Sequence record: MT129654.1
Source of the DNA: Escherichia phage MN04
Direction: 5' to 3' (one strand)
Length of the DNA: 64,000 nt
Shown here piece by piece: positions 1 to 17,400 of this stretch (the stretch's first letter is position 1; each line of letters begins with the position of its first letter). The position numbers and the translations under genes are program-made. The notes below the pieces were generated by a model. The model was not told the origin of the DNA. It did no database searches and saw nothing but the letters and a program-made list of their open reading frames with translations.

Positions 1-1097
1 AAGACTTTGTAATCCAAGAAACCGATAATGTTTCGATGGCATTTACTCCTTCTCCGGACGGGTTCCGTCAACTGACGTATGTAAACAATATCCATACTAA
101 GAACGGTGGTCACCACGTTGAATGTGTGTTTGATGATATCTGTGAGCACCTTCTGCCTGGTATTAAAAAGAAATATAAAGGAATCGAAGTAACTAAGGCT
201 CGTGTTAAAGAATGCCTTACTATGGTAATGTTCATTCGTGATATGAGCAATATGCGTTTTGATTCGCAGACTAAAGAGCGATTAACCTCTCCGTTTGGCG
301 AGATTCGTAACCATATCCAAATTGATGCTAAGAAAATTGCAACGGCTATTCTTAAGGTCGATGGGTTGATTATGCCTATCGTCGAAGCCGCTTTAGCACG
401 TAAACTCGCTGCCGAAAAAGCCGCCGAAACAAAAGCTGCTAAGAAAGCTTTGAAAGCCAAGGTCCATAAGCATATTAAAGCCAATATGTATGGCAAAGAT
501 GCTGATACGACTTTATTCCTTACGGAAGGTGATTCTGCAATGGGTCCTTTCATTGAAGTTCGTAATAAAGACCTCCAAGGTGGTTATCCGTTACGCGGAA
601 AGGTTATGAATACCTGGGGTATGACTGCTGCTGATATCATGAAGAACAAAGAATTGTTTGATATCTGTGCAATCACTGGACTGGTTATTGGTGAACCTGC
701 AGATAAAACCAACTATCGTAATATCGCTATCATGACTGACGCCGATGTGGATGGTACTGGTTCGATTTATCCTTCGTTATTAGCTTTCTTTAGTCAGTGG
801 CCGGAATTGTTTGAACAGGGACGAATTCGTTTCTGTAAGACTCCTGTAATCATTGCTCAGGTTGGTAAAGAACAGGAATGGTTCTATGATGTACCTAGTT
901 ATACCAAAGCTAAGGACTCTCTACCAAAACATTCCATTCGATATATTAAAGGTTTAGGTTCTCTTGAGAAAGCTGAATATCGTCGAATGATTCAAGACCC
1001 TAAATTTGATGTGGTTCAATTACCTGAAGATTGGAAAGAACAGTTCGAAATGCTCCTAGGGAATGACCCACAGCTGCGTAAGGCTTGGATGTCATAA
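1..1097 (+). CDS. 39: DNA topoisomerase II large subunit (GyrB-like, unsplit 39+60 form), 5'-truncated at window edge
   Basis: Reading frame open from window start; TOPRIM motifs EGDSA and IAIMTDADVDGTGSIYPSLL; C-terminus resembles T4 gp60 end; sits upstream of rIIA. Confidence 0.85.
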   Translation, partial: DFVIQETDNVSMAFTPSPDGFRQLTYVNNIHTKNGGHHVECVFDDICEHLLPGIKKKYKGIEVTKARVKECLTMVMFIRDMSNMRFDSQTKERLTSPFGEIRNHIQIDAKKIATAILKVDGLIMPIVEAALARKLAAEKAAETKAAKKALKAKVHKHIKANMYGKDADTTLFLTEGDSAMGPFIEVRNKDLQGGYPLRGKVMNTWGMTAADIMKNKELFDICAITGLVIGEPADKTNYRNIAIMTDADVDGTGSIYPSLLAFFSQWPELFEQGRIRFCKTPVIIAQVGKEQEWFYDVPSYTKAKDSLPKHSIRYIKGLGSLEKAEYRRMIQDPKFDVVQLPEDWKEQFEMLLGNDPQLRKAWMS

Positions 1098-1139
1098 TAA
1101 ATACGTACGGTACATGAGTACCGTATAAAAGGAGACTTT

Positions 1140-1301
1140 ATGAGAAAGTACTGGGTTACGCTCGTCACAGGTGAATATGGTTATCTCTGGACAGATACAC
1201 GTCCTCTTTTTGCAGAGTACGTTACTATCACAGTTGAAACATGGGACGGCGAAGTTTACCAAACCCGTGGTCAAGTTTATAGAGTCGATTCAAGCAACTA
1301 A
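1140..1301 (+). CDS. hypothetical small protein (53 aa)
   Basis: ATG with AAGGAG Shine-Dalgarno upstream; followed by terminator hairpin; below track size cutoff. Confidence 0.3.
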   Translation: MRKYWVTLVTGEYGYLWTDTRPLFAEYVTITVETWDGEVYQTRGQVYRVDSSN

Positions 1302-1304
1302 TTA

Positions 1305-1326
1305 AGGGCCGCAAGGCCCTTTTTTG
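1305..1326 (+). terminator. rho-independent terminator
   Basis: AGGGCC-GCAA-GGCCCT hairpin followed by TTTTTT. Confidence 0.6.
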
Positions 1327-1328
1327 GG

Positions 1329-1358
1329 GTTTACAACAGATTAAAAGTGTGATACGAT
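1329..1358 (+). promoter_or_regulatory. early-type promoter (GTTTAC -35, weak -10)
   Basis: GTTTAC + 17-nt spacer + TACGAT; precedes ORF at 1377. Confidence 0.3.
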
Positions 1359-1376: not shown

Positions 1377-1700
1377 ATGATTATGCAAGATAATAGTATA
1401 GTGAACACTGGCAACTTGGCTTTGTCTTTTATGGAGACCGCAATTCGCAATTGTAAAGACGAAGGAGTAGTGATTACAAGCGGCAAGGGACTAGAATATC
1501 TCAAGGCTGTAAAATCTATTGCCTTAAAGATTAAAGATAACCAGGCGCTCTCTCCTGTTGTCCAGGAAAAGGTTCTAGAGATATTGTATCGCCACAGAGA
1601 GCACAAAAGTACAATGGGTTCTATGAGAAGAATTCTGGCTGAACTAGGTTCTACCAGAGAATATGTTCAACATGAGGTAGTTAAAAATGACAAACTTTAA
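1377..1700 (+). CDS. hypothetical early protein (107 aa)
   Basis: ATG with AGAGGTGAG SD; downstream of early-type promoter. Confidence 0.4.
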   Translation: MIMQDNSIVNTGNLALSFMETAIRNCKDEGVVITSGKGLEYLKAVKSIALKIKDNQALSPVVQEKVLEILYRHREHKSTMGSMRRILAELGSTREYVQHEVVKNDKL

Positions 1701-8012: not shown

Positions 8013-8089
8013 TGAGCAATTTCCATAACGAACATGTGATGCAGTTCTATCGTAACAATCTTAAAACTAAAGGCGTCTTCGGACGCTAA
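8012..8089 (+). CDS. stp: Stp peptide (activator of host anticodon nuclease in T4)
   Basis: 25-codon [28 protein letters not shown], near-identical to recalled T4 Stp; start overlaps ndd stop (TAATG). Confidence 0.7.
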
Positions 8090-8398: not shown

Positions 8399-9778
8399 AT
8401 GGCTGATGTAATTGATACCCTTTTTAAACAATCCTTAGATGTTTACGATGATGCTTTTACTCGTCGTGACTTAAAAAGCATTATCGACAATGAAGCGCTG
8501 GCTTATGCAATGTATACTGTCGAAAACCGCGCCATTCCAAATATGATTGATGGCTTTAAACCTGTACAACGTTTTGTAGTTGCTCGTTGTCTTGATATGG
8601 CTCGTGGTAATAAAGAAAAATTCCACAAACTAGCTTCTATTGCAGGTGGTGTAGCCGACCTTGGATATCACCACGGTGAAGGTTCTGCTCAAGAAGCAGG
8701 TGCTCTGATGGCTAACACATGGAACAACAACTTCCCACTGTTGGATGGCCAAGGCAACTTTGGTTCTCGATTAGTTCAAAAGGCTGCAGCCTCTCGTTAT
8801 ATTTTTGCACGAATTGGAACTAATTTCGCAAAGGTTTATAAGGATACAGAATATGCTCCGGTTCATGCGGATGTCGAACATAAGCCACCAGCTTTTTATC
8901 TGCCTATTATTCCTACTGTTCTTCTTAATGGTATTTCCGGTATTGCGACTGGTTATGCAACTAATATTCTTCCTCATAGTTTTGATTCTGTTAAGAAAGC
9001 TGTATTGCAGGTTCTTCAAGAAAAACGCGTAACCAAGCCTAAGGTGGCTTATCCGGAATTCCGTGGCGATGTGGTTGAGATTGAACCAGGTAGTTATGAA
9101 CTACGAGGCACGTATAAGTTCACATCTCGAACCCAAATGCATATCACAGAAATCCCGTACAAATACGACCGTGAAACGTACGTGGCCAAGGTACTGGACC
9201 CTTTAGAAGACAAAGGGTATATCACGTATGATGACGACTGTGACGAGAATGGTTTCGGCTTCAAGGTTAAGATTCGTAAAGAATATGAATTGCCTACTGA
9301 AGAAAATAAGAAGCATGAAAAAATCATGAAGGACTTCGGGTTAATCGAACGTCGTTCGCAAAACCTGACCGTCATTAATGAGAAAGGTAAACTTAAGGTT
9401 TACGAAGATGTAGTTGAACTGATTCGTGATTTCGTTGAGGTCCGTAAGACCTTTGTACAAAAACGTATTGATGGTAAAATCATCGAAACCGAAGAAGCTT
9501 TCAAACTGGCATTGGCTAAAGCTACATTCATTAAAGATGTTATTGATGGTGTGGTGGTTATCCAAGGTAAGACCCGTAAAGTTTTAACCGAAGAATTGGC
9601 CAGCAATAAAGTCTACGGTGAATACGCTGATAAACTCGTAGCAATGAATATTTTCCATATCACGTCCGATGAAGCTAAGAAACTGGCTTTGGAAGCCAAG
9701 GCTAAGAAAGAAGAGCACCAATACTGGAAAACCACTGATGTTGTAACTGAGTATGTTAAAGATTTGGAGGCTCTATGA
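8399..9778 (+). CDS. 52: DNA topoisomerase II medium subunit (GyrA-like)
   Basis: 459 aa; N-terminal RAIPNMIDGFKPVQRFV GyrA-type motif; T4 gene 52 synteny. Confidence 0.9.
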   Translation: MADVIDTLFKQSLDVYDDAFTRRDLKSIIDNEALAYAMYTVENRAIPNMIDGFKPVQRFVVARCLDMARGNKEKFHKLASIAGGVADLGYHHGEGSAQEAGALMANTWNNNFPLLDGQGNFGSRLVQKAAASRYIFARIGTNFAKVYKDTEYAPVHADVEHKPPAFYLPIIPTVLLNGISGIATGYATNILPHSFDSVKKAVLQVLQEKRVTKPKVAYPEFRGDVVEIEPGSYELRGTYKFTSRTQMHITEIPYKYDRETYVAKVLDPLEDKGYITYDDDCDENGFGFKVKIRKEYELPTEENKKHEKIMKDFGLIERRSQNLTVINEKGKLKVYEDVVELIRDFVEVRKTFVQKRIDGKIIETEEAFKLALAKATFIKDVIDGVVVIQGKTRKVLTEELASNKVYGEYADKLVAMNIFHITSDEAKKLALEAKAKKEEHQYWKTTDVVTEYVKDLEAL

Positions 9779-9996: not shown

Positions 9997-10224
9997 ATGA
10001 AATTTAAAATCGAAAACGAAATCGTTAAAGCTAAAAATGCTCTGACTGCTAACAAACTGGTTGTAGATGGTATTGAATATGATATCTGTGGAGTTCGTGA
10101 AGAAAAACCCGGTGTTCTGACTTTCTTCACAATGATTTTTAAATTTAAAGGTGACACAGAATTCAAACAGTTTGATTTTGCCCCTGAAGACGAAATCGAA
10201 GTTCGTAATCTGAACATTAAGTAA
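9997..10224 (+). CDS. hypothetical protein (75 aa) flanked by duplicated promoter cassettes
   Basis: ATG after GGAGAT SD; bracketed by the 49-nt repeat at 9927 and 10271. Confidence 0.4.
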   Translation: MKFKIENEIVKAKNALTANKLVVDGIEYDICGVREEKPGVLTFFTMIFKFKGDTEFKQFDFAPEDEIEVRNLNIK

Positions 10225-10263
10225 GTACTTTATTAGAGCTCTTGAAAAAGAGCTCAAAATAAA

Positions 10264-10292
10264 GTTTACTTCTGCTTTAAACATGATACTAT
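10264..10292 (+). promoter_or_regulatory. early promoter cassette, repeat copy 2 (upstream of motA)
   Basis: Near-identical to copy at 9920. Confidence 0.5.
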
Positions 10293-10319
10293 AGACCTAT
10301 CAAATAAATGAACTGAAAC
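10271..10319 (+). repeat. 49-nt direct repeat, copy 2
   Basis: Identical to 9927-9975. Confidence 0.8.
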
Positions 10320-10329
10320 GGAGATTAAA

Positions 10330-10965
10330 ATGTCTAAAATTACTTATATCATCAAAGCTTCTGAAGACGCCCTGAATGAAAAAACCGCTTCAATCTTAGT
10401 ACATATCATCAAGCATAACTTCATCACTTCAGGCGAAGTCCGTGAAGCCCTGAGTGAACAATTTAGTGCAGCGGTAGTTAACTCTAACATTGGTGTATTG
10501 ATTAAGAAAGGATTCATCGAAAAATCTGGTGATGGACTGGTGGCTACGGGTGAAGCAATGGACCTAGTTCAAAAAGCTGCTGACCTGTTCGCTTCTGAAA
10601 ATGCTCCAGAGATGTTGGAAAAACGTAAAACTCGCAGTTCACGTGGTGTTACTCCTGAAATGGTAGTATTGGCTGGTGAAGTTAAATCTTTGTTAGAAGA
10701 CCGAATCGAGATTCGTGAAATCGCTGAAAACCGTAGCAATCTTGAAGTTCGATTCGCTAAACGTACCAACGGTATTCGTCAAATCGAAGTCCGTCGTGAC
10801 GGAATGATGCGTATCTTCGGTTATAATATGACCGATAAAGAAAAACAAGTGTTTACTTCCTTGAATCTTGATGTTAAGATTAAGACTGGTGGTAAGAATA
10901 CTTATATCGACTTCCAAAACGTATCATCTGAAGTTATCAAAACCGTAACCAACGCAATTATCTGA
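10330..10965 (+). CDS. motA: middle-transcription activator MotA
   Basis: 211 aa as in T4; N-terminus MSKITYIIKASEDALNEKTASIL and NSNIGVLIKKGFIEKSGDGL resemble T4 MotA. Confidence 0.85.
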   Translation: MSKITYIIKASEDALNEKTASILVHIIKHNFITSGEVREALSEQFSAAVVNSNIGVLIKKGFIEKSGDGLVATGEAMDLVQKAADLFASENAPEMLEKRKTRSSRGVTPEMVVLAGEVKSLLEDRIEIREIAENRSNLEVRFAKRTNGIRQIEVRRDGMMRIFGYNMTDKEKQVFTSLNLDVKIKTGGKNTYIDFQNVSSEVIKTVTNAII

Positions 10966-10979
10966 CTGAGGAAATTATT

Positions 10980-11309
10980 ATGAACAAGCTGAATATTGTT
11001 AATGAACTTCGTCGTTGTGCAGAACCTACTCAAGAAGGTTGGGATATTTGGTACCATGGCGCTTATCTCGGCACTATTGTTAAGATTAAAGCAGGTAAAT
11101 ACTTAATCATCCGTGGTGGTTCTGAAGCTTCTATGGGAATTCGTAAGAACTTTATGGCAGCCATCAGCACCTTTGTTCCAGCTGCTTATGAAGTCTATAA
11201 AGCCGACTACAAAGAATACCAGGAATCACAACCGGTTATTCGTTCAATTGGTGTTAATAAAGCTCAACAGAAAACTTTATGGCAACGTGTTAAAGGATGG
11301 TTCAAATGA
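10980..11309 (+). CDS. hypothetical protein (109 aa)
   Basis: ATG after GAGGAAA SD. Confidence 0.4.
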   Translation: MNKLNIVNELRRCAEPTQEGWDIWYHGAYLGTIVKIKAGKYLIIRGGSEASMGIRKNFMAAISTFVPAAYEVYKADYKEYQESQPVIRSIGVNKAQQKTLWQRVKGWFK

Positions 11310-11644
11310 TTCCGATGGAACTTAACTGGGACGGCGAAGGTCATTCCCTTAAATTGATTGAAGAACAGCGTAATGATTGGGACGAGCGTGTAGCTTTAGT
11401 AAACGGTATTAAGAAAATTTACCAACTCAACCTTCATATTGACAATGTTCATCTTGAATTTGGTATGCAGTTATTGCGGTTTCTTGAGATTATTTTTATA
11501 GAAAAGGTAAACATAACTTCGCATGGTGCTGGCCAATCGGTTGTTATTAAATTATCATCCTATTATAAAGGTGATTTAATTGAAACAGCCACCAAAATTC
11601 AAGAATTTGCTAAAGATAACGGCCATAAGGTGATTTTCAAATGA
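11306..11644 (+). CDS. hypothetical protein (112 aa)
   Basis: ATGA overlap with upstream stop (translational coupling). Confidence 0.35.
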
Positions 11645-12129
11645 ATCCATTAAAAGGTAAAGAATTATCCTTTAAAGACCGTATGGCTTTATTAGATAAA
11701 GCTCTTTCTCGTGAAACACCTGAAAGCTTAGCAGCTAAATTACGAGCCTATGGTGATTACACTGAATATTCGGAAGAGGATGTTTTGGAAGAGGTTCCTG
11801 AAATCTGTTGGCAGATTGCTCATTGGAACAACAATGAAAAATATCAGCGACGAATTGTGTGTGCAGCCAATCGCTTTAAGTTAAAAGACGGCGGGACTTT
11901 GGTTATTCCTGGCGCGCGTCATTATTCAAAAGATATGGCGGAAGTGCTTGACCAAGTAAGTGATAAACTTGTGTCAGAGCATGTTTGCGGTGATGACCAA
12001 GGATTTATCGACCAATACTCAAATTATTGGACTCGCGAAGAAGCAATGATTATTGCAACATATGCTAATCAAGTTCGTATTGAACGTGGTGGTAGTGAAA
12101 AAGAACTTTACTCTGAGGACCTTTACTAA
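11641..12129 (+). CDS. hypothetical protein (162 aa)
   Basis: ATGA overlap with upstream stop. Confidence 0.4.
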
Positions 12130-12410
12130 TGAATCTTAAACAACTCCAGATTGATGCAATCGAAGCCCATATCAACCATATTAAACGTCTGAATGTTATG
12201 GTGGAAGATAATTGGGGAACTTATGTCAACCAACCGGCTTGGGATGCATTAGATCATGAATATATAAAGAATATTAGTTCTAAGACAATTCATGGGAATA
12301 TGGAAGGGTTGAAGCCGTTCCTACGTGATATGTATATTGCAACTAATAAAGAAATTATCAGTTCTCTTGAATATCAATTAAGGAAATTACGTGAACAATC
12401 TTGTAGCTAA
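12129..12410 (+). CDS. hypothetical protein (93 aa); in the region where T4 encodes Arn, not verified
   Basis: TAATG overlap with upstream stop; positional inference only. Confidence 0.35.
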   Translation: MNLKQLQIDAIEAHINHIKRLNVMVEDNWGTYVNQPAWDALDHEYIKNISSKTIHGNMEGLKPFLRDMYIATNKEIISSLEYQLRKLREQSCS

Positions 12411-12499
12411 GCACGATTTCAATAAGGCTTCGGTCCATAAGGACAAGAAGAAAAATTTTAAAGAGTCCAAGCGTAAGCAGAAACATAAGGGTAAAGGGT

Positions 12500-12658
12500 A
12501 TGAGTCATAACTTAGAGAATACCGTAACAGGTATGCGTACGCGTGAGCAGGAGTGCTTTGAGGAATTCCTAGGAGCTGATTTTAAGTTCCAGGAACCTAT
12601 TGAAGAAATGTATCAGGAATATGTTAAAAAGAACGAAGAACATGTTTACAATCCATAA
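12500..12658 (+). CDS. hypothetical small protein (52 aa)
   Basis: ATG with AAGGG SD; below track cutoff. Confidence 0.25.
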   Translation: MSHNLENTVTGMRTREQECFEEFLGADFKFQEPIEEMYQEYVKKNEEHVYNP

Positions 12659-12672
12659 GGATATGTTATTAT
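12644..12672 (+). promoter_or_regulatory. early promoter of asiA
   Basis: GTTTAC, 17 nt, TATTAT. Confidence 0.5.
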
Positions 12673-12713
12673 AGCCTTATCAGATAATGTCGTACTGAAT
12701 TGAAGAGAATATT

Positions 12714-12989
12714 ATGACTAAAATTGAAATCGTTTCCGAAATTGCTACTATTGTTTCCATTTTGATTAAAACGGATTGTGAAGACATCATGCAACGCCGT
12801 GATGAGTTTATTGCCTTTTTGAATGAGTTGGGTATTCGTAATGAACATGGAAAGGAACTTAACGGTCTATCTTTTAATAAACTCTTTAAGTCTTTAACTG
12901 AAGATGAACGTGATACTCTTATTGAGCAATTTAATGAAGGGTATGAAGATATACACCGTTATCTAATGATGTATACCTCCAATTTTTAA
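12714..12989 (+). CDS. asiA: anti-sigma70 factor AsiA
   Basis: 91 aa; IVSEIATIVSILIK...FIAFLNELGI...LIEQFNEGYEDIHRYLMMYT closely resembles T4 AsiA. Confidence 0.85.
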   Translation: MTKIEIVSEIATIVSILIKTDCEDIMQRRDEFIAFLNELGIRNEHGKELNGLSFNKLFKSLTEDERDTLIEQFNEGYEDIHRYLMMYTSNF

Positions 12990-13639
12990 CGAGTTCGACC
13001 TAATGTCCTCCCGGCCTGACCACACATAGACGAAAGTCTAGGAAATCCTAAATCCGGTTTGATGTCATACCAGTATAATGATATCGAACCGGCATAGATG
13101 TTATCCAAATTAAAAAACGGACATGAAAACATATACGTGAAATGGGTTTTCTTCTTTGTAGGAAGGAACACAGTTTCTGTACTTGATTCAAAATAATTCC
13201 CGTTAACTCCCGCCATATACTCCACTGACGTTTTGTCAATCGGAAATCCTCCCGTATTTTTTGCGTCTACCGTTTCCGGTAATTTACCCTCATAAGCAAC
13301 CATGTCCACAAAATAATTCATGTTGGTTGGTCTAAAAGAATATATTGCTGTGAAGTCTGCGCCTGAAGAAGAATGCACTATTCGGAGCTGCTCGATAGCC
13401 GCAATTTTAAATCTATTGTCCTGGTCTTGTCTAATCATTTCAGTATAAGAGGCATAAGTTGTCTCTTTATAAAAGTTTAGAATATATTCGCCTTTATACC
13501 AAACCAGTGCCATAAAGAACAATAATATTACGACTAGGACCCGGGAAAAAACTACTTTCCCGGAAGAAGTATCTTTAAAAATTCTATCAAGAAGTCCAAA
13601 AAGTAGGTCTGATAATGAAAATCCTACTTTTGGTTCCAT
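12986..13639 (-). CDS. t: holin T
   Basis: 217 aa; N-terminal TM region plus large C-terminal domain; FVDMVAYEGKLP and CPFFNLDNIYAGSISLYWY resemble T4 holin; late promoter upstream. Confidence 0.9.
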   Translation of the reverse strand: MEPKVGFSLSDLLFGLLDRIFKDTSSGKVVFSRVLVVILLFFMALVWYKGEYILNFYKETTYASYTEMIRQDQDNRFKIAAIEQLRIVHSSSGADFTAIYSFRPTNMNYFVDMVAYEGKLPETVDAKNTGGFPIDKTSVEYMAGVNGNYFESSTETVFLPTKKKTHFTYMFSCPFFNLDNIYAGSISLYWYDIKPDLGFPRLSSMCGQAGRTLGRTR

Positions 13640-13657
13640 ACTTTTCTCCTTTAAAGA

Positions 13658-13665
13658 TATTTATA
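13658..13665 (-). promoter_or_regulatory. late promoter (TATAAATA) for holin t
   Basis: Reverse complement reads TATAAATA about 20 nt upstream of t start. Confidence 0.55.
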
Positions 13666-13681
13666 ATTTAATACTTTCGTA

Positions 13682-14455
13682 TTATAACCAAGAGCCGTAG
13701 ATAGTGCCTGTAGCGCCCCATGATGGGGCGGAACCGAATACTGCTCTACCAGGAGCACCACCACCCGACCTGGATAAGTTTTTACCCCATCCATCTCCGC
13801 CCCAACCTCCAGCATCACCGCCATTGCCTCCGCCGAATTGGGAAGTGTAACCGGCGCCACCTGGACCATCATAACTAGCATTGCCACCTGGCCAATTAAC
13901 ACCACCGCCGCCGAGACCAAATGGTCTGCCGCCACCGCCACCTGCTGTAGAATTTGCAGGCCAACTATTCTGTAATGATACGGCACCGCCGCCACCACCA
14001 CCGGAGGCTATCACACCATAATTCCAAATGCGAAGTCGCCCACCAATATCATTTTGGATTACGTCACCACCATTAGTGCCTGGGCTTCCATTTACGCTAC
14101 CATTACCACCTCGGCCCCACATATGAACACCACCATGAATATTCAAAGTAACATATTCGTTAGGGGTATCACCGTACATAAAGAACAACGGAACATCTTT
14201 AGTATATGATACTAAGTTGCCTGTGATATTAAACACTATAGGAGCACCGCCGGCTTCAAAACAACGGTCTCTAAACCATTGCCCGTTAAAGTTATGGTCG
14301 GCCCCAAGCGTGTGAATTACTTCAACAGATCGACCTATCATATTACTCATCCAAAAAGGAACACCCATTCTTAATCTTACGGCTGCTCCTGCCATCCAAG
14401 GGTCTCCAGTTTGTACCCTTGCAGACCATCCTACCCACGGTCCTTCAACTGCCAT
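13682..14455 (-). CDS. 38: gp38 receptor-recognising adhesin (T2-type, glycine-rich)
   Basis: Conserved [22 protein letters not shown] block followed by poly-Gly motifs; start set to ATG after GGAGG (track start is TTG); downstream of gene 37. Confidence 0.8.
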
Positions 14456-14486
14456 ATAAACCTCCAAGGGGCCTAAGCCCCTCTTA

Positions 14487-17400
14487 TTATTTTAACAATG
14501 ATTTAACTAAAGCTTTAAGTTCTTCAATCTCTGATTTCAATTCTGTTATTTCGGCAGTATGCTCATTGATTGCAGCTGTATTTAAACCAATTACACCGTT
14601 ATAGTTCAAACGAAGTAAAGCTTCACTATTAGGGTCACCTTCAACCAATTCAGGTAAAATAGCTTGAACTTCTTGGGCAATTAAACCAGCATTAGGTTCC
14701 CATTTCTGATTACCTTCCTCATCTAGGCCTCGCTTCTGCATATAAGTGTAACCGTTAATTTTAGAAAGCTTCTGAGAAGCATTTTCAAATTTAACAAGGT
14801 CTTTTTTAACGCGAATATCAGAACGAACATAAACATCACGGACATATGTAGAATAGGCATCACTTTGTTGGATTAAATGACCAAAAGAAATAATAGCCCT
14901 TCCTGTTTCGGTCCACAAAGCACCGGTGGTATCCCAAAGACCTTGATGGATATGGTAAGAGCTAGACCAAGATGCAATATGCATACCATTGGCAACCATA
15001 TTGATTCGGCCATCACCGCCGTGTGATAATCCTGTGTCATTATCACCAATAGCAATACTAGGAGAGCCTAATCCGTTAACAGTTCCAACACCAATGGCAG
15101 GAGTCTGGACTAAAGTCGGGGCGTAAAATAAACCGCTAGAGTGGAATTCGAAAATACCTACAGGACCGTCGCCACGCTCGGCATTACCTACTCGAATTAT
15201 CGCTTGTCCCCATGCTTGTGGAGTACGACGCATGCCTAATTCAACAGAAGTAGTATAACCCTGACCACTAATTACAGATCGGCCTTTAATAATGGGATAA
15301 TAACTGTCTTCACCCACACTACCAAACTCAAGGAAATAAGGTGCTTCTAAGCCCCATTGGTCACCCCATGCACCAGATTTATGTGCAATCCAGTTGGAAC
15401 CGTTCATATAAATACGGTCTCGGTTTACATTGAATACTGAAGCACCTTGTGGAGATAAAACAACCTCACCATTATGGGTGATATTAATACCACCTTGGGA
15501 TTGGAAGCTCCAGAAGGCTAAACCGTTATCAGCACCACCATTACCTACATACCAGTTATCAACACCACCTTTTTTACCCTTAACATAACCAGCTTCATCT
15601 GCCGGATAATCAATAACAATAGCGTCTGAATTGGTTTTAAGAGTTAAGCGGCCTGTCATTGTGTCCCCGCCTTTACCAACACGAGTATTCACCGCTGCGT
15701 CAAGGTTAGTAGCACCGCTATACTTGTTCCAAATAGAACCTGCAATATTACCATCAGTATTCATGAAAGCTGTACCGGCATATAAGCGGTTCTGAGCCAT
15801 GAAGTTACCTTCTTTGGTAAAGCGCCAATATTTTAATCCTGTAGCATCACCATCACCAAGCAAATCACCTTGAGCAACAATTCGATATTCACTTGTAGCT
15901 CGGTCCATACCTTGAGTAACAGTTACGTTCGAATCAATATTTTTCTGCTTAGTAATAGGGTAAAATGCTTGAGTTGCAGCATCGAGCGTTTGATATACCA
16001 GAGCTTTAGTCGTGTTCTGGTTGGCATAAGATGCACCGTTACTATTAGGGAATTCTAATGCACCATTACCCCTAAAATAAACCTGGTCTGCTTCTAAGTT
16101 AGGGATTTTAACCCGACCGGTGTCTAACATAATACTTAATGGGCGTAATGGACCCAATCCGCCACTTTCACCAGCATTAACATTGGTTGGGATAATATGT
16201 AGCTGGTCTTCTGAATTTCGAAAAATAACACCATACTTATCATTCCAAATACGAAGACCACTAGCAGCGCGGACTTTAATTTCATTGGAAACATATAGAT
16301 TGCGTTTTAAAGATGTATCTTGACTGACAGACAATCCTTCGACGATGTTCATCGTGCCGTTTAAATAAGATTCGACTTTACCTGCCGTATTTCGTTGAAT
16401 ATAGTGCATCCAGCCGGTAGCATCAGATGTTTCCAATACGTTTTTACGAGAACCACCTACCGTATTAAAAGTGTCACCCCAACCTTTGAGCTCTATATTA
16501 TCAACTGAACTATATCCTGAGGTACTTCCTTTAAAAAGCACAGTGGAAGCGTTACCACGACCGTCAATATTAACCGAACCACCACGGACTTCAACGTTAC
16601 CAGGAGTAACCAACAACCCACCATCAGTGTTAACGTTTGTTACACCTTTACCACGGAAATAATGGTGGTATTTACCACTCTGATGATAACCTAAAAGAGT
16701 CTGCCCATCACCAAAGCCGTTTTTATCATTAGTAGTATTAACAATAACTAATGGATAGTTTTGAGCTGTAGGAAGAATTAAATCAGAACCGTTGGTTGAA
16801 TAACCCGCAACTAACTGTTTAAGGCTTGTAACTTCAGTCGGAGTTGTAAGTAAAGTATAAGCTCCATTATTAACTGTATGGAACTGGCCGTCTTGTTTCC
16901 ATTTCAAACCTGTGTTATTGTCACCAAGAGCAATTGAAGCCGTCCCTAATTCAGAATATCCTTTAGGGCCACCTGGAAGACCTACAGAAATAGAATGACC
17001 GGCTTTCAATCCACCTGCCCAGTTAAACGACAAAATATAAGTGTCTAAGCCATCTCCGGAATACCAGGCTATTCCGTCATTAACATTAACTTCGTGGAAA
17101 ATACCTGCTCCTACAGCATTTCGCATAACACGGAGGTGGTTAATAGCCGTTTCGCTTTCTGCCAATGGAGTGTTATTTGATAATGAAGATATATCGTAAT
17201 CGCCGGCGGCTTTACCGTCGGTAATAACTTTATTAGTATAAATTATTGGAGATTTTACCGATGTTCCACCAGAAATAGATGGAGCATAAAATAAACCGTC
17301 ACCGTTGAATGCAAAAATATTAGATGTTGAATTAGTGTAATCCTGAACACGAACATTTAAGATTTGCTTGGTATCCCCAGCACGGTTTTGAGAATAAATT

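Follow-up and report, generated by a model that had tools for sequence, protein, structure and literature searches.

A stretch of phage DNA 64,000 nucleotides in length (hereafter the window) begins, almost certainly, within the C-terminal part of gene 39 of a JS98-like T4-type coliphage, the gene being present in its ordinary, uninterrupted form. The large subunit of the phage type II topoisomerase, which in T4 is divided between gp39 and gp60 and additionally depends on a translational hop, is here read as one continuous polypeptide from the window edge to its stop codon (Table 1). We consider it very probable, moreover, that the MobA homing-endonuclease cassette, with its 50-nt bypass element, never entered this gene.

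The gene 39 frame and its domains

Translation of positions 3–1097 on the (+) strand yields 364 sense codons followed by TAA at 1095–1097, with no internal stop. The ORF listing gives the frame only from its first ATG, at nt 36, but translation shows it open further 5′, as far as the window edge. The 5′ 723 nt of the gene (codons 1–241) lie upstream of the window; the unsplit state is therefore shown from codon 242 onward. BLASTP aligns the protein with JS98 gp39 residues 242–605 at 363 of 364 residues (99.7% protein identity), the one substitution being E versus D near the C-terminus. That an unsplit gene 39 exists is already known, as the JS98 record annotates a 605-aa protein (YP_001595132.1) as 'DNA topoisomerase II large subunit' (gene 39). 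The corresponding family in PHROGs, phrog_543 (also 'DNA topoisomerase II large subunit'), is matched at E 1.2e-163. The solved structure that matches best, PDB 8ylu_C (611 aa), is evidently T6 gp39 with a C-terminal His tag, from a 2024 cryo-EM study (PMC11461880); it aligns in a single stretch (residues 3–364 to 244–604, E 3.5e-192). The engineered T4 gp39–gp60 fusion, PDB 8yo3_C, is matched in two stretches, and the PDB chains of GyrB, ParE, and eukaryotic Topo II give single-stretch matches that cross the T4 split position. An antisense ORF of 147 aa at 110–553 was regarded as an incidental consequence of the conserved sense frame and set aside.

Table 1. Features located in the window, with the evidence on which each was assigned
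Feature	Position (nt)	Strand	Evidence
3′ three-fifths of gene 39, codons 242–605 and TAA	3..1097	+	open frame, JS98, phrog_543, 8ylu_C
Gene 39 product: unsplit large (GyrB/ParE-like) subunit, phage type II DNA topoisomerase	3..1097	+	
Transducer domain, DNA_gyraseB PF00204, aa 10–144	30..434	+	Pfam E 1.7e-13
Toprim domain, aa 170–277, within a single polypeptide	510..833	+	Pfam sub-threshold, motifs, PDB
Equivalent of T4 gene 39/gene 60 split, A-D-K-T-N, aa 233–237	699..713	+	BLASTP ends, MAFFT
Equivalent of T4 gene 60 hop, Gly251 GGT directly followed by Thr252 ACT	753..758	+	sequence
9-bp perfect hairpin, ACGGUAC core, directly 3′ of gene 39 stop	1105–1126	+	MFE -13.8 kcal/mol, z -4.0
53-aa ORF between gene 39 and rIIA.1	1140–1301	+	phrog_4369
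Strong intrinsic terminator after 53-aa ORF, AAGGGCC-GCAA-GGCCCUU and U run	1304–1326	+	-17.8 kcal/mol, z -3.75
T4-early-like promoter match directly after terminator, TTTACA, 17 nt, TG-TACGAT	1330–1358	+	
107-aa ORF between gene 39 and rIIA.1	1377–1700	+	Pfam DUF7367 E 3e-43; phrog_5382
Gene 52, GyrA/ParC-like DNA-cleavage partner subunit, 459 aa	8399..9778	+	tblastn, ORF coordinates

The domain content is that of a type IIA topoisomerase large subunit. The transducer domain scores 50.9 bits against a Pfam cut-off of 27. The Toprim domain, at 19.2 bits, falls under its gathering cut-off of 23.1; its assignment is nevertheless secure because the diagnostic motifs and the structural matches agree. 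The translation places the catalytic glutamate, E175 (nt 525–527), in a TEGDSA motif and a DADVD acidic cluster (DxDxD) at aa 246–250 (nt 738–752), and the Toprim regions of GyrB, ParE, and Topo II are matched in the PDB as single stretches. The N-terminal GHKL ATPase domain is found in the 605-aa ORFs of the related phages JS98, NC-G, and Esco_phi_B-01, and lies upstream of the window here. The part of gp39 within the window would thus supply the transducer and Toprim regions, with the ATPase part encoded further upstream, and gp39 and gp52 would be expected to assemble into an A2B2 type IIA topoisomerase, as solved for T6. Neither reassembly of a divided subunit nor ribosome hopping would be needed. 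The enzyme is presumably functional, given its homology to those solved from T6 and T4.

Given that the first 241 codons are outside the window, it could be supposed that gene 39 is interrupted or truncated upstream, by a mobile element, by an intein, or as a pseudogene, and that the subunit is not truly unsplit. Such events have precedent, inteins and other endonucleases having been reported in the upstream ORF of a metagenomic relative (bioRxiv 10.1101/2022.08.31.505936). However, JS98, NC-G, and Esco_phi_B-01, which share 96–98% DNA identity with the window over positions 1–1400, each carry an intact 605-aa ORF that starts 721 nt before the equivalent of window nt 1; the frame in the window is open right to its edge, and no hint of a 5′ interruption of gene 39 was found within it. 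We regard an upstream interruption or truncation as highly improbable, and judge just as slight the chance that the unseen 5′ 723 nt contain a different interruption (intein, intron, or homing endonuclease) that splits the subunit at a new site. An exact search with the 60-mer of positions 1–60 gave no match in either the viral or the metagenomic contig collection. By comparison with these three relatives, the unseen 5′ part of gene 39 is probably intact.

The T4 split and hop sites and the MobA cassette

For comparison with the divided gene, we used T4 gp39 (516 aa) and gp60 (160 aa, assembled over the annotated gap of 50 nt) as given in NC_000866, and T2 gp39 (605 aa) and RB69 gp39 (606 aa) as given in their own records. 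The T4 proteins represent the same enzyme with the same Toprim residues, and the window protein is equally similar to both: residues 3–233 align with T4 gp39 244–473 (76% identity, E 3e-116) and residues 233–364 with T4 gp60 28–159 (76% identity, E 1e-76) in BLASTP. In a MAFFT alignment that includes T4 gp39 and gp60, the gp39 sequences of the window phage, JS98, RB69, and T2 are colinear and gap-free at both the split and the hop sites. T4 gp39 homology, by contrast, stops at GE(K/P)A (GEKA in T4), its final 43 residues being unrelated, and the N-terminus of T4 gp60 is unrelated too, homology there beginning only near residue 31 (MNY). In the window phage, T2, and RB69, GE(K/P)A and NY are joined by three ordinary codons. 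The T4 split thus falls inside the Toprim domain, between E175 and the DADVD cluster, and it is here that T4 carries an insertion of about 1 kb, consisting of the 43-aa gp39 C-terminal extension (CTE), mobA (a pseudogene in laboratory T4), the gp60 N-terminal extension (NTE) of about 30 aa, and the 50-nt gap. The mobA gene has been described as an insertion splitting the T4 gene (Edgell et al., PMC2988022). None of this insert is present in the window.

The hop site is likewise unremarkable. Whereas the T4 ribosome leaves the message at Gly46 (GGA), passes a UAG and the 50-nt gap, and resumes from a GGA landing codon to Leu47, the window phage has GGT-ACT with nothing between, and no take-off codon, stop, or gap was found at 753–758. 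The peptide IAIMTDADVDGTGSIYPSLL, which the preliminary description had singled out as continuous with upstream sequence, is indeed residues 241–260 of the frame (nt 723–782) and runs on without a break from the preceding sequence. At positions 730–800, which surround the hop-equivalent site, the predicted RNA fold is no more stable than that of shuffled sequences (z +0.51). The 48-nt region equivalent to the MobA target is identical to that of T2 at 35 of 48 positions.

A short hop or frameshift could in theory be concealed in an apparently continuous ORF, but such cryptic recoding is the least credible of the alternatives considered here, to the point of being negligible. There is no internal stop to be bypassed; the four in-frame GGA codons (aa 60, 199, 226, and 273) include none that is directly followed by a stop; no unusual RNA structure occurs at the hop-equivalent site; and the protein is residue-for-residue colinear with those of JS98, T2, and RB69 and with the solved T6 gp39 chain. 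The colinear alignment refutes recoding.

Searches for the cassette itself were extended to the whole window. Even with up to three mismatches allowed, the 50-nt gap of T4 is not matched anywhere in the 64 kb. With intact T4T MobA and T4 gp60.1 as tblastn queries, the best matches in the 64 kb reach E 0.29–0.41, in unrelated places, and neither the CTE nor the NTE has a tblastn match better than E 2.3 over the same extent. Between the gene halves the ORF is continuous, with no remnant of mobA or gp60.1. Every component by which a T4-type cassette might be recognized (the HNH endonuclease gene mobA or its remnant, gp60.1; the element-derived CTE and the NTE with its nascent-peptide signal; the 50-nt gap with its matched Gly take-off and landing codons, the stop or hungry codon after take-off, and the take-off stem-loop) is therefore absent.

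The preliminary description had proposed that a single ORF runs from the window edge through the regions equivalent to the end of gp39 and to gp60, and the 364 codons, with BLASTP matches to both T4 proteins, bear this out. Its statement that no mobile gene intervenes agrees with the continuity of the ORF and with chance-level tblastn scores for MobA and gp60.1 (E ≥0.29 in 64 kb), and its statement that no 50-nt bypass element is present agrees with the unmatched gap sequence and the GGT-ACT juncture. The alignment it had named as a check, with T4 genes 39 and 60 and with gene 39 of T2 and RB69, spans the junction and the hop site without gap, stop, or frameshift.

Distribution of fused and split forms

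The arrangement in the window is the common one. When the 364-aa sequence was searched by tblastn against 50,697 phage records, homologs were recovered in 2188, of which 1884 cover 80% or more of the query at a single location; these span phages of Escherichia, Klebsiella, Acinetobacter, Aeromonas, Vibrio, Campylobacter, Agrobacterium, and other hosts. In the 47 records whose identity is 90% or higher (Dhakavirus relatives), the gene is without exception a single piece that covers 99–100% of the query. The T4 insertion (NC_000866, 2780–3930, megablast), on the other hand, is matched in only 43 records, each at least 95% identical to that of T4 and all from T4-like Escherichia, Salmonella, and Shigella phages. 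An uninterrupted gene 39 is the majority, or default, arrangement, and the T4 split-and-hop is a rare exception. As the cassette is confined to 43 records and most records have the fused form, the split-and-hop is therefore a shallow, clade-restricted state.

These observations accord with published work on the cassette. Manning and Atkins describe the MobA element as a mobile cassette of about 1.1 kb, acquired at one and the same site by several Myoviridae clades through independent insertions; every one of these clades also has 96–99% identical 'parental' genomes without the element, and they call the unsplit progenitor of T4 ancestral (bioRxiv 10.1101/2022.08.31.505936). The 2024 cryo-EM study compares a two-subunit enzyme from T6 with a three-subunit enzyme from T4, and describes the insertion in the T4 Toprim domain as a pendant, with no change in activity; the T2/T6 enzyme has two subunits where that of T4 has three (PMC11461880). 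The T2/T6 gp39 (605 aa) is also unsplit, is colinear with the window protein over the split and hop sites, and works with gp52 alone as partner.

An uninterrupted ORF could alternatively have arisen secondarily, from an ancestor that bore the MobA cassette and later lost it by excision, so that a single ORF was recreated. Re-fusion of this 'hit and run' type has been described, and proposed for a clade of Aeromonas phages (bioRxiv 10.1101/2022.08.31.505936), and if the excision were perfectly precise, nothing of the cassette would be left to see. The re-fused genes described there, however, keep CTE- and NTE-like residues, whereas the junction in the window is gap-free relative to T2 and RB69, and the T4 CTE and NTE remain without a match better than E 2.3. 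The uninterrupted layout is, in addition, common to all 47 of the close relatives; neither a Dhakavirus relative with a MobA cassette nor CTE/NTE-like residues at aa 233–237 were found. A history of invasion and excision is thus very unlikely, and we reject it on the strength of the gap-free junction in favor of a gene that was never split.

The distribution and parsimony, taken together with the literature rather than with a phylogenetic tree, suggest that the fused state is ancestral, as the preliminary description had held; the near-universal fused form, the single-stretch PDB matches of cellular and eukaryotic type IIA enzymes over the split site, and the restriction of the cassette to 43 records give that view its support. 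The further remark that the arrangement is 'as in T2-like phages' holds for the gene and fails for the phage. Gene 39 is arranged as in T2, but T2 and T6 belong to the genus Tequatrovirus, share about 77% amino acid identity with the window protein, and lack one of its residues (K-IDV, against KGIEV in the window). The phage itself is JS98-like: by megablast of positions 1–1400, the closest records are Esco_phi_B-01 (97.9%), JS98 (97.8%), JS10 (97.6%), and NC-G (96.1%), all Dhakavirus.

With this result the window phage joins the large majority of T4-type phages, in which the large subunit is one polypeptide, and the T4 split-plus-hop is confirmed as a mobile-element insertion that is recent and clade-restricted. 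Its gene 39 could serve as a 'parental' comparison sequence, or possibly as a naive target for MobA homing. The names in the databases do not always reflect this arrangement. The original JS98 and JS10 entries (GenBank EF469154 and EU863409) call the fused 605-aa product 'gp39 topoisomerase II large subunit N-terminal region'; this name is carried over from the split gene of T4 and misfits an unsplit one.

Neighborhood, partner subunit, and mosaicism

As in JS98, gene 39 is followed by rIIA.1, rIIA, and rIIB, and the partner gene 52 is present; the window reads in the reverse direction relative to the JS98 record and continues through the three rII-region genes and onward. In T4 and T2, rIIA.1 directly follows the topoisomerase gene, whereas RB69 has a different ORF, of 366 aa, in this position. 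The two small ORFs that occupy it in the window are both annotated in NC-G, and the same stretch is unannotated in the JS98 RefSeq record. The interval between gene 39 and rIIA.1 appears to be a small variable slot.

The slot also contains candidate transcriptional signals. The hairpin immediately 3′ of gene 39 lies just 5′ of the Shine–Dalgarno sequence (AAGGAG) of the 53-aa ORF. It is not an intrinsic terminator on the (+) strand because no T-run follows it, and it may be an element for mRNA stability or processing. The terminator after the 53-aa ORF was missed by a simple scanner because A-U pairs extend its stem into the T-run. With this terminator and the adjoining promoter match, gene 39 and rIIA.1/rIIA look like separate transcription units.

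Over aa 3–442, the partner subunit gp52 shares 99.3% identity with its JS98 counterpart (tblastn). It has 17 extra N-terminal residues (8399–8460; MADVIDTLFKQSLDVYDDAFTRRDLKS..., against MELTSRGLKS... in the 442-aa JS98 protein, which uses the same ATG). The longer N-terminus recurs, with 100% identity, in no fewer than 11 further Dhakavirus records, and a 47-aa query from this end of the protein is covered to 80% or more in 299 records; since the longer form is common to other Dhakavirus phages, JS98 gp52 is the short variant.

The window phage is a mosaic relative of JS98, and not JS98 itself. At 8013/8014, between ndd and 52.1, about 460 bp of the JS98 sequence are cleanly deleted; in JS98 this stretch carries orf256 and orf257, which are annotated 'activator of host PrrC lysyl-tRNA endonuclease' (Stp-like) and are absent from the window. 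Positions 10218–14691 (the arn, asiA, t, and gp38 region) are 85% identical to JS98, versus 95–98% elsewhere. Within the first 54 kb, resemblance to JS98 is lowest at positions 14691–16354, which either go unmatched or reach about 71% identity; this segment maps to the C-terminal, receptor-binding part of the long tail fiber gene 37. The divergence over 10218–16354 is typical host-range mosaicism.
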